A DNA stretch of 35,124 nucleotides from an uncultured Erysipelotrichaceae bacterium (GTDB lineage Bacteria > Bacillota_I > Bacilli_A > RFN20 > CAG-288): positions 1 through 35,124 of the forward strand of contig CACXYG010000003.1 of the NCBI GenBank assembly GCA_902771745.1. The letters run 5' to 3'. Positions 11,375-16,490 of this stretch are shown here, piece after piece. Position numbers and translations under genes: made by a program. Position 1 is the first letter of the stretch, and every line of letters begins with the position of its first letter. The notes under the pieces are model-generated. The model worked only from the letters and a program-made list of their open reading frames with translations, made no database searches and was not told the DNA's origin.

Positions 11375-11803
11375 ATGAAAAAGCTATTTCAGAACAAGGG
11401 AATCGGCTTCTATCTTGAAGCTGTTCTCGCACTACTTTCCATCGTTACAGCCATCATCTATGCTGTCAGCTATGGTAATTTCGTCAATCAGGCCACCAAT
11501 AATAAGCCTTGCATCTCGTGGGTAGGCTTCGTCTTCTTATTCGCCTGGATCGTTCTTGCCGTCGTCTTGAAGTTTACCAAGTTTGGTAAATACACTCCCT
11601 ATCTGGATATCGTCTTTATCGAATTGGCTCTCTTCTTCTATGTCTATCGCATCTACTACTATGTTTCCGTTATGGCTGCTGGTATTGATGCCTCCTTCAA
11701 CTTCACCTTCTTCTTCATCACCATCTTATTTGTTATCTTAGCCGCTATCGCTATCGCTAACTGCTTCCTTCCACAGGAAAAAGCCTCCAAGGAGAATGAC
11801 TAA
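11375..11803 (+). CDS. Small integral membrane protein, unknown function
   Basis: 142 aa with four hydrophobic segments. SD GAAAGGAAA lies upstream. Confidence 0.7.
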   Translation: MKKLFQNKGIGFYLEAVLALLSIVTAIIYAVSYGNFVNQATNNKPCISWVGFVFLFAWIVLAVVLKFTKFGKYTPYLDIVFIELALFFYVYRIYYYVSVMAAGIDASFNFTFFFITILFVILAAIAIANCFLPQEKASKEND

Positions 11804-11810
11804 TTAGAAC

Positions 11811-12035
11811 ATAATGCGTTTTCGTCACCGAAAACACATCATGCAGCATAGCTGCAGTATTTAGTTTGCTCCAGGAAGGTTGAGAACATTGATTCATGAA
11901 TATACCTGGAGACGCTTAGGCACTGTTACGCCCATACACCTCATCAGTCTCTGCCACAGACGGCAACTCTATTGTAAGTCGCCGCATATCCCATGGGATA
12001 TGCCTATGGCAGTAACCAAGGAATCATCCTGGTAT
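11811..12035. ncRNA. Candidate structured RNA element, unclassified (strand unresolved, minus slightly favoured)
   Basis: No plausible ORF. By hand count it is 45% GC, against 32% in the rest of the same intergenic region. It contains a dense set of hairpins, including a perfect 20-nt palindrome and a three-way junction. A minus-strand -35 TTCACT / 16 nt / -10 TATGAT lies at 12038-12065. Confidence 0.3.
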
Positions 12036-12324
12036 TAATCATATGAAAAGTAAATTCCTAGTGAACACAAAATGACGATGATCTTAAAACCATCGCCAAT
12101 TTTATCAATGGAAATCGAGAAAGCTATCTTCGCTTCAAAAAAATGAATTCATCTCATTTTGATGTGACGACAGGTATCATCAACTGTTGGATGAAAAACT
12201 ATCCGGAAGAATCGAGAATCGCTTTAATTCCTCAACCATTCAGGAAAAAATACAATCGATCATTCAAAACATTCAAAAGGCATTAAACCTCTTCAGTTCT
12301 TCCAATTAATATATAAAAGAATCA

Positions 12325-14208
12325 TCAGTCTTGTTGGTTTTGTCTTTCACTCGTCAACCAAGAAATTACATCTTGCGTTCGATAACCTGCGTACTCAGTA
12401 GATAAGTGATTATCAATTAAATAGAAACATGTTCCTGGAAGAAGAGAATTAAAGATATCACCTAAGATAGGGACCTGAATTTTTTGACTGATCATAACAC
12501 CAAGTTTTTGAATCTCATTACTATCCGATTCGACAGTTAAGGATCGGATATTTTTTGGTGCATAGGTAAAATAACAATCCACACCCATAATTCCTAACTC
12601 CAAATAGATAGCATTCAGAGAATCAAACATCACTTGGGTAAAGACAGTGGTAGTATATGGTGTTTCTGGTTGAGAGATTCTTTCATCTGCATCATTGTTT
12701 GGACGATAGAGAATCAAATCACCATTGATGTTATATATTTCATCATCATAATAGACATTATCATCATCGTAATGATACGCGTTATAGGAATAATCTTTGG
12801 TCGGTAAAAGATTTCTTTCTCCCTGAAAACTTCTGAATGAATTAAAGAAATCGTCATATTTAGAAATATCGATATATTGAAGACAATTAAAGTTTCCCTC
12901 AAAGAAGTAGAAGAGATTCTTTTCAAACTGAGTATCACTTCCAAACTGACAATCCAGACACCAATAATCAAACTCAGGAGAATTGATGAAGATATCCCCT
13001 GACTTGAGATAATGCTTGATGACTTCAATCTGCGGTTTGATATTCACATAGGCAAATACACCCATGTTGACGACCTTATAATCTGGATAAGCTGCTTCCA
13101 TCAAAGTAGAGTCATATCCATAACGAGTCGAAGAACCAGAAAAAAGAATGATTTTCTTTTCGTCTTTCACCATATCTAGATAATCGATCTTATTGGTAAA
13201 CGTATCATAGTATGTTCCACTGCCGACGGGTTTTCTGATGGCGTTGATATGGACTGTCTTTATATTAGAACCAGTAAAGGAAGTATCAAAGATATTCTCA
13301 AGATTATCGACAAAAGTGATCTCTTCTAAAGAAGAATTCAAAAACGCATTCGGTTTAATAAAACCGATATTCTTTGATAAATGAATCTTCTTGACACTCT
13401 TATTTTCAAACGATTGATAACCGATAGAAACAACGGGTTGTCCTTCATAAGTAGCGGGAATTACAACCTCTGTGTCATTTCCTACATAACTGGTGATCTC
13501 ATACCCTTTATGTTTCAGACTAAAAGTGAAATCCGAACTTGGACTCTCTTCAAGATACACAGGATAAAGGTCAGTGGTGTCATAAGGAACTTTGGAACCG
13601 AAGTACACATTCTCACCACTACCATCCGCTTTGGTATTCCAGCAATCGAACTGATAACCTGTCTTTTCTTTTAGATATTCATAACCATTTAACGCGTTGG
13701 TACGAAGGTGTTCACCCTTATAAGAAACCGCGATACTCTCTTCGCTTGTAGAGATAAATGAACTTGTACCAGCATGATAATTCAAGTCGATTTCTGTTAA
13801 CGGTCTTCCACTGCTGACAATAGATGATTCTTCGATAGTAGAACTGTTGTTAATAGAAGAGGATGGATGAGAAGAAGAACTATTTGGATTATCCTTTTTG
13901 TTCTCCTTCTTGGTATAGATAGAAACCACCATGGAATACTTCACATCCATAAATGTTAATGAGATATCTTGTGTTCCGCTGTTTATCACTTGATAGTTTT
14001 CATAAGAACAGGCATCAAAAAGATATCCCTCGTTCATCCTCACATGAAAGGTGGCATCACTTCCTCGTTCAATCTTCAACAGCGGTGTATCAACAACATA
14101 GCTGTCATCCGGTTCAATCATAACCTTGATTTGATCAAGAGAAGGTGATGGCTTCTGACAAGAGACCAACAATAACGGTAAGACGAAAAGAGTTCCTTTT
14201 GATTTCAT
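12325..14208 (-). CDS. Surface lipoprotein with a Listeria-Bacteroides repeat, BspA-type leucine-rich repeats and a C-terminal SGNH/DltD/AlgX-like domain (last domain tentative)
   Basis: 627 aa. The lipobox is LLLVSC, followed by a Ser-rich linker. GYQFDCWNTKADGSGENVYF is a Flg_new-type repeat and VVIPATYEGQPVVSIGYQSFEN...FIKPNAF is an LRR_5-type repeat. The C-terminal roughly 290 aa carry ILFSGSS and a late IDNHL motif. Confidence 0.7.
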   Translation of the reverse strand: MKSKGTLFVLPLLLVSCQKPSPSLDQIKVMIEPDDSYVVDTPLLKIERGSDATFHVRMNEGYLFDACSYENYQVINSGTQDISLTFMDVKYSMVVSIYTKKENKKDNPNSSSSHPSSSINNSSTIEESSIVSSGRPLTEIDLNYHAGTSSFISTSEESIAVSYKGEHLRTNALNGYEYLKEKTGYQFDCWNTKADGSGENVYFGSKVPYDTTDLYPVYLEESPSSDFTFSLKHKGYEITSYVGNDTEVVIPATYEGQPVVSIGYQSFENKSVKKIHLSKNIGFIKPNAFLNSSLEEITFVDNLENIFDTSFTGSNIKTVHINAIRKPVGSGTYYDTFTNKIDYLDMVKDEKKIILFSGSSTRYGYDSTLMEAAYPDYKVVNMGVFAYVNIKPQIEVIKHYLKSGDIFINSPEFDYWCLDCQFGSDTQFEKNLFYFFEGNFNCLQYIDISKYDDFFNSFRSFQGERNLLPTKDYSYNAYHYDDDNVYYDDEIYNINGDLILYRPNNDADERISQPETPYTTTVFTQVMFDSLNAIYLELGIMGVDCYFTYAPKNIRSLTVESDSNEIQKLGVMISQKIQVPILGDIFNSLLPGTCFYLIDNHLSTEYAGYRTQDVISWLTSERQNQQD

Positions 14209-15811: not shown

Positions 15812-15996
15812 AATTCCTCCTGTAACATTTTGCTTTCTTTGATTATAGAACATAAGCGTTTTTTTACAAAGCTTTTCCAATTTGTTAACTCAAAATTATC
15901 ATTTTATCCAGAACACTTTAGAAACACAGAATAACAAAGGCTTCAAAAAACGCTCCTTATATACCCCAAAGTGCATAACAAGAAGCGTTTAGCTAT

Positions 15997-16414: not shown

Positions 16415-16490
16415 TGGTGGAGCCAACCGGGATCGAACCGGCGACCTCCTCGTTGCGAACGAGGCGCTCTCCCAACTGAGCTATAGCCCC
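16415..16490 (-). tRNA. tRNA-Ala, anticodon CGC, with encoded CCA
   Basis: The 76-nt sequence GGGGCTATAGCTCAGTTGGGAGAGCGCCTCGTTCGCAACGAGGAGGTCGCCGGTTCGATCCCGGTTGGCTCCACCA folds as a cloverleaf. It has the G3:U70 pair, A73 discriminator, anticodon loop TTCGCAA and T-loop GGTTCGATCC. Confidence 0.95.

Follow-up and report, generated by a model that had tools for sequence, protein, structure and literature searches.

A structured element in a long convergent gap of an uncultured Erysipelotrichaceae genome is very probably a truncated IS110-family left end

The window analyzed here is a stretch of 35,124 nucleotides from an uncultured Erysipelotrichaceae bacterium (contig CACXYG010000003.1, positions 1 to 35,124). 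Between two convergent genes it carries a hairpin-dense, GC-enriched element, which a preliminary description had taken for a stand-alone structured RNA of an unclassified kind. Our analysis indicates that this feature is very probably the truncated left end of an IS110-family insertion sequence (IS), fused to pseudogene-bearing debris at a deletion junction, and not a functional RNA gene. The 5' 108 nt of the supposed RNA correspond to the 5' stem-loop of a bridge RNA. The idea of a structured RNA therefore survives in part: the core of the fold, with its three-way junction and palindrome, does derive from an RNA gene, but that gene neither stood alone nor belongs to an unclassified family.

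The element lies between a 142-aa ORF (11375-11803, plus strand) and a 627-aa LRR_5 ORF (12325-14208, minus strand; the LRR gene), which converge across 521 bp, as against about 40-175 bp for the other convergent gaps within the window. In 100-nt windows the GC content is 0.39-0.51 over 11800-12050 and 0.32-0.38 over 12050-12300, and only two short ORFs overlap the region, one of 52 aa (plus strand) and one of 46 aa (minus strand), both lacking a Pfam match. The unusual length of the gap, the GC enrichment of its first part, the lack of a credible ORF and all the pairings listed in the preliminary description were thus borne out, and the coordinates are collected in Table 1. When folded on the minus strand, the region 11807-12045 reaches -91.5 kcal/mol (z -5.7), and none of 200 shuffles was as stable; the plus strand reaches -68.9 kcal/mol (z -3.2 against shuffles). 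The minus-strand fold is the better one because it holds many G-U pairs, and this difference between the strands favours an RNA encoded on the minus strand, as had been proposed. Folded alone on the same strand, 11933-12040 gave z -6.7 and 11807-11932 gave z -4.8. A promoter scan located a promoter-like site, TTCACT-16-TATGAT, at 12065-12038 on the minus strand, with 9/12 positions matching, and the count of such sites in the region was not above that expected from shuffles.

Table 1. Features of the intergenic region, in window coordinates.
Feature	Position	Strand	Basis or remark
Junction of the ~15.3-kb deletion	11806/11807	.	Identity breaks; L007 10432-20429 and L020 5317-14743 overlap
Start of a remnant of the 3' coding end of an LRR-gene paralogue	11807-11823	-	Rest removed by deletion in this strain
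Structured non-IS stretch; may be decayed LRR-paralogue coding sequence	11824-11937	-	
Hairpin, 14 bp on the minus strand, GUGA loop (GNRA-capped)	around 11810-11843	-	Non-IS part
Hairpin, 6-bp stem, 3-nt loop	11842-11856		Within non-IS part
Stem	11869-11875 with 11905-11911		Non-IS part; fold
Relic of IS110-family left end, left-end nt 1-108	11938-12045	-	96-100% identity to full copies and solo relics
Helix P2a, closing the three-way junction	12004-12012 with 11951-11959	-	Fold
Hairpin P4 of the 5' stem-loop	11962-11983	-	Fold
Hairpin P3 of the 5' stem-loop (perfect 20-nt palindrome)	11984-12003	-	Present in sequence and fold
-10 box TATGAT, left-end half of the predicted circle-junction promoter	12038-12043	-	Left-end nt 3-8 in all copies
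TTCACT, chance -35-like hexamer in host flank, non-IS	12060-12065	-	Within 27-nt host stretch
Intrinsic terminator of the LRR gene, 11-bp stem and T-run	12073-12098	-	

The assignment to an IS rests on homology. The minus strand of the relic aligns with the left end of the full copies L059-L066 and with that of the solo relics L046-L048; the similarity spans left-end nt 1 to about 108 (12045-11938) and then ends, left-end nt n corresponding to window position 12046-n. A covariance model built from the IS copies found a single match in the window, at 11924-12045 on the minus strand, with 110.6 bits, as compared with 137-147 bits for intact copies. A 21-mer from the core also matched in three other GTDB species, where about 108-168 nt are common to the window at 96-99% identity in unrelated contexts, next to a histidine kinase and AAA_14, mnmG and DUF3825, or upp. 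All three start at CATATGATTAATACC, directly after a T-run. The relics end at other points, L046 after about 125 nt and L048 after about 168 nt.

A gapped-pattern metagenome scan found the module at 100% identity in contig L059, 345 nt upstream of a 396-aa ORF with the Pfam domains DEDD_Tnp_IS110 (8e-15) and Transposase_20 (2.5e-24). Seven of the 11 matches of that scan (L049-L052 and L054-L056) were discarded as chance matches, having neither BLAST nor covariance-model similarity. Via recombinase homologues, seven full copies (L059-L066) were retrieved from metagenome contigs, with recombinases 57-100% identical. The module forms the extreme left end of all seven, the right terminus reads ...TTGACAnnnCTTATCTAATTT, and the length is 1.59-1.67 kb, comprising a 345-nt left end with a bridge RNA of about 290 nt, the gene for the 396-aa DEDD recombinase and a 127-nt right end. 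The recombinase is about 30% identical to annotated plasmid IS110 transposases, and the IS appears to be an undescribed member of the known IS110 family. Joining the sequence of the right end TTGACAnnnCTTATCTAATTT to the left-end start CATATGAT creates TTGACA-17 nt-TATGAT; the predicted promoter is complete only on circularization, with its -35 TTGACA in the right end and its -10 in the left end. The full copies are mostly on contigs of about 1.6-1.8 kb, as would be expected of a multi-copy repeat that breaks assemblies.

By inspection, a terminator-like hairpin and a T-run directly precede most insertion sites. In L060 (854-3400), a full copy interrupts an Amidoligase_2 gene in a phage-like contig with TerL and ParB_N/methylase neighbours, so the element also enters genes and travels on phage-like DNA. 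The copy in L062 (485-2150) is a mosaic, 88% identical to L059 through the left end and into the recombinase gene (first ~330 nt) and about 70% identical beyond, with recombinases 57% identical in amino acids, which suggests recombination between IS relatives. L063 and L064 share the same IS copy and right flank and differ in their left flanks, which would fit either a rearrangement associated with the IS or a chimeric assembly.

In the bridge RNAs of the IS110 family, one internal loop pairs with the target DNA and another with the ends of the IS. The transcribed left end of the element described here is predicted to fold in a comparable manner. Its first ~105 transcribed nt form a 5' stem-loop composed of P1, P2, P2a and a three-way junction with P3 and P4, followed by a U-run end (-58 kcal/mol, z -7.4). 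Among nine distinct copies, 96.8% of cells are paired, three pairs are compensatory, and the covariation exceeds that of all 500 shuffles; the covariation backing is modest, coming from few and close sequences. In P3, a U-A pair is replaced by C-G in L063-L066 and L046, a compensatory change, and P4 shows compensatory and one-sided changes in L061, L047 and L062. For left-end nt 123-336 of five distinct copies, RNAalifold returned two stem-loops with internal loops and six compensatory pairs; the stem of the first (target) loop has three compensatory pairs in L061.

The right guide, on the 3' side of the target loop, is reverse-complementary to the DNA across the insertion point, and the guides vary between copies together with the site. 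These assignments were made from sequence only, on six full copies with both flanks and five distinct right-flank sites. The right guide fits its own flank over 7-9 nt in five of the six copies, the exception being L062: the targets are TTTTCTGTT in L059, TTTTTTGTT in L060 and TTTTTTAAT in L063 (9 nt, 9/9 in each), TTTTTAAT in L064 (8 nt) and TTCTATT in L061 (7 nt). The left guide, on the 5' side of this loop (AGGGGCUUUU and variants), reads in the same sense as the left flank and matches it over 7-10 nt in two of the six copies (L062, 10 nt; L060, 7 nt) and partially in the others, including L059 and L063. In the second (donor) loop, partial and discontinuous correspondences were seen by eye between CUAAUU and the right-end terminus CTAATTT, and between AUCA...AUGAA and the left-end start. 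The full element is predicted to encode a bridge RNA that would bind the recombinase and guide recombination.

The copy in the window lacks the 3' strand of P1 and both the target-binding and the donor-binding loops. No recombinase was found in the window by tblastn, and there is no convincing match to the IS right end; a right-end-like match at 15863-15883 (plus strand) was rejected, having two mismatches and the wrong strand and position, and being equalled in 15% of shuffles. In the absence of a recombinase, guide loops and a right end, the window copy is a derivative and not an intact member. Since the surviving 5' stem-loop carries no guide, by comparison with IS621, we infer that the relic cannot guide recombination and is inert at present. 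If it is transcribed at all, read-through or the chance host -35 would be responsible. The promoter proposed earlier proves to be a hybrid: its -10 box is a genuine part of the IS, and its -35 hexamer is host flank. The 27-nt host stretch with TTCACT is found also in the IS-free L028 and in L030, and unrelated sequence takes the position of the hexamer at other insertion sites. Likewise, the competing pairing 11871-11876/12027-12032, considered as a possible pseudoknot or alternative fold, involves the orphaned 5' strand of P1 with a chance partner; the native partner UCCUGGU was lost in the truncation.

Comparison of related contigs reveals how the gap became abnormally long. The independent assemblies L002, L003 and L006 match the window across the junction 11806/11807. 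L001 and L007-L016 are 96-99% identical to the window up to 11806 and then run directly into a 1025-aa GH3 gene. The LRR-gene contigs L020-L029 match the window from 14300 down to 11804-11807 and continue past the junction with 60 nt, an intrinsic terminator, a 338-aa DUF7064 gene, a 779-aa PEP-utilising enzyme, PMT_2, AraC regulators and an ABC ATPase; these are the genes beyond GH3 in L007, in reverse order. The junction thus marks a deletion of about 15.3 kb, to which the abnormal 521-bp gap is due. It removed GH3, two ABC ATPases, AraC regulators, PMT_2, a 244-aa ORF, the PEP-utilising enzyme and DUF7064, and is blunt, with 0-1 nt of microhomology. The segment is present or absent among near-identical strains. 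In the DUF7064/PEP-utilising operon (L020 5400-5446; L030 3957-4001; L031 255-292), a conserved TAAAAT box ends about 9 nt before the ATG and no ribosome-binding site is visible, which suggests that the mRNA may be leaderless.

A third arrangement, haplotype C (L028), follows the window to ...TTTACTTTT (12046) and then continues with unrelated sequence containing a small zinc-ribbon ORF. The IS relic is missing from L028 4519-4729, where ...ACTTTT is followed by GCATTATT... and a 54-aa zinc-ribbon ORF on the opposite strand. ACTTTTGCAT in L028 resembles the target predicted from an L062-type right guide (TTTTTGCAT), and the site may be an empty insertion site. The 27 nt that follow the LRR-gene terminator (12046-12072, TTTTGTGTTCACTAGGAATTTACTTTT) are about 93% conserved at L030 252-278, in a related species, where they lie downstream of a non-homologous 178-aa gene and between differing flanks. 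Considered as a recombination site, this stretch turned out to be plain conserved host flank, common to L028 and L030. In addition, a 52-nt segment beyond the LRR stop in L020 (4821-4872) and L028 is missing from the window at about 12221/12222; a 72-aa ORF on the opposite strand occupies this place in L020 (4759-4977, minus strand) and is a gene call in L028, and in the window it has shrunk to a 47-aa ORF (12143-12286, plus strand).

The order of events that we infer has three steps. An IS110-family IS of about 1.67 kb would have inserted after ...ACTTTT, 27 nt past the LRR-gene terminator. Later, a deletion would have removed all sequence past left-end nt ~108, with the final strand of the 5' stem-loop, the two guide loops, the recombinase gene and the right end, and fused the relic to sequence ending in the decayed 3' end of an LRR paralogue. 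In the window lineage, the further deletion of about 15.3 kb would then have joined this composite to the stop codon of the 142-aa gene.

The 3' half of the element has another origin than the relic. It shows no similarity to the remaining IS left end, 54 of 300 shuffles scoring as well. At its far edge, L020 5300-5376, where L020 5300 equals window 11823, can be aligned to the final ~80 nt of the LRR gene with a score of 27 (shuffle mean 10.1; 0/500 shuffles as high). The translation of this remnant, QDVIS*LMSERQNTQ, matches QDVISWLTSERQNQQ of the LRR protein, and its own terminator follows. From L020 5300 onward, including the part retained at window 11807-11823, the sequence is the decayed 3' end of an LRR paralogue. 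Alignment to a decayed coding gene in relatives, which the preliminary description had named as evidence against its reading, was thus found at the 3' edge and in the haplotype A continuation. For 11824-11937 the picture is less clear. There is no similarity to the LRR gene at the DNA level, and the protein-level similarity to the LRR C-terminus is weak (11/500 shuffles); the stretch may be decayed LRR-paralogue coding sequence. Its fold (z -4.8), unexpected for such sequence, comes chiefly from the 14-bp GUGA hairpin, of which 11824-11937 holds the 5' arm. This GNRA-capped hairpin, together with the end of DNA-level similarity to the LRR gene upstream of 11823, could be read as a second mobile-element remnant or another structured RNA. 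We consider that unlikely: neither the window nor the 66 fetched loci nor the phage and plasmid collections yielded a second copy or homologue, and the stretch joins the pseudogene remnant directly, in the same reading frame, with a protein similarity that is weak but collinear.

The different origins of the two halves bear also on whether the composite as a whole could be a working small RNA, the IS 5' domain and the new 3' hairpins having been domesticated together and transcribed from the hybrid site TTCACT-16-TATGAT. Such an RNA would account for the strength of the minus-strand fold, both in the window (z -5.7) and in haplotype A, where a 323-nt version reaches z -7.0 and ends at an intrinsic terminator; a promoter-like site is at hand, and the orphaned P1 strand is able to pair with a downstream UCCUGG. 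However, only the 5' half recurs elsewhere, and both the related species L030-L033 and haplotype C lack the unit. The terminator in haplotype A belongs to the pseudogene remnant, and the window copy has lost it. The promoter-like site matches at 9/12 positions and is of a kind no commoner in the region than in shuffles, and no Rfam family matches. A domesticated small RNA is therefore very unlikely in our view. The transcript of about 220 nt proposed earlier, with its end at the hairpin 11816-11837, finds no support; that hairpin sits in non-IS sequence, and undeleted sister strains continue from it through the pseudogene remnant to another terminator.

The order of elements in L020, namely a promoter-like site, a structured RNA of about 300 nt, an intrinsic terminator, 53 nt and the start of the 338-aa gene, would fit a riboswitch or attenuator that served as cis-regulatory leader of the DUF7064/PEP-utilising-enzyme operon in haplotype A and was orphaned in the window by the deletion. 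But the orthologous operons in L030-L033 (61-80% protein identity) do not have the element upstream and keep only about 45 nt before the ATG, with a -10-like box of their own, and the IS-derived 5' part lies beside unrelated genes elsewhere. We have rejected a leader, since the element is missing upstream of these orthologous operons, and regard it as extremely unlikely. The 5' stem-loop might also have been kept for an activity of its own. It retains at least 96% identity in three independent relics (the window species, L046 and L048), which could hint at retention and not chance. In at least three species (window/L020, L046 and L048) it would then act alone as a decoy, which might titrate the recombinase of incoming IS copies, or as a terminator or insulator after the upstream gene, and the window fragment would be domesticated and not junk. 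We judge this highly improbable, and favour an inert, truncated left end.

No Rfam family matches the region. At gathering thresholds, Rfam 15, whose classes include raiA, ROOL, GOLLD, OLE, 6S, SRP, ribozymes and RsaE, gave nothing in the window except a tRNA at 16418-16490 (minus strand), and neither gathering nor permissive scans found a family on L020 (the intact haplotype) or on the full L059 left end. In a permissive scan of the region the sole match was RsaE with 24 bits against a threshold of 79, rejected as it falls on the LRR terminator hairpin. The motifs CUGAUGAG and GGAUGAUU were considered as parts of a hammerhead or of a C/D box or k-turn, but CUGA is paired in helix P2 and no GAAA core follows, and no Rfam ribozyme matches the region. 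BLASTN in distant mode against phage and plasmid collections found no match to the region, and scans of viral contigs, two with 17-mers and one with the transposase, gave chance matches or nothing.

The full element resembles IS621 and the IS110 group in several respects (PMC11208160, PMC11208158). Its RNA is encoded within a long left end, ahead of the gene for a DEDD/IS110 recombinase, and its modules follow the same order, with a 5' stem-loop, a target-binding stem-loop and a putative donor-binding stem-loop. The target loop is likewise divided into a 5' side in the sense of the left target and a 3' side complementary to the right target across the core. Excision of an IS110 element as a circle brings a -35 from its right end next to a -10 from its left end and creates a promoter (Durrant et al. 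2024, PMC11208160), and the predicted promoter here is split in the same manner. In contrast, the RNA is about 290 nt here and 177 nt in IS621, and the 5' stem-loop is a branched three-way junction of about 105 nt with a U-run end instead of about 31 nt. The cryo-EM map of IS621 does not show that stem-loop, and deleting it does no more than weaken the binding of the recombinase (Hiraizumi et al. 2024, PMC11208158). The targets also differ from those of the IS110 group in being T-runs, mostly just after intrinsic terminators, and the window copy differs in being a truncated relic that has lost both guide loops and the recombinase. The seekRNA/bridge RNA elements of the IS1111 group have the recombinase superfamily and the RNA-guided logic in common with the element. 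In IS1111 elements, however, the RNA is encoded at the right end, which is the long one, and there are long subterminal inverted repeats (PMC11208160); the present element has a long left end (345 nt) and a short right end (127 nt), the arrangement of the IS110 group. As a structured, GC-enriched and ORF-free piece of a mobile-element RNA gene stranded between genes, the relic is like other solo IS ends, such as orphan IS200/IS605 ends with omega-RNA scaffolds; those represent another IS family and RNA, and here only the non-guide 5' domain is left. Such solo ends are easily taken for novel ncRNA.

A seemingly convincing orphan structured RNA can thus be resolved into a truncated IS end and pseudogene debris, which guards against the naming of a spurious ncRNA class. 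Meanwhile, the locus documents a strain polymorphism of about 15.3 kb, by which a GH3 glycosidase, two ABC ATPases and a PEP-utilising-enzyme operon have been removed. The full IS represents an IS110-family element of rumen and gut Firmicutes with an unusually large, branched 5' stem-loop and a putative bridge RNA of about 290 nt, whose natural guide variants track T-run (terminator-proximal) insertion sites, and it adds a divergent example to a family under development for programmable recombination.
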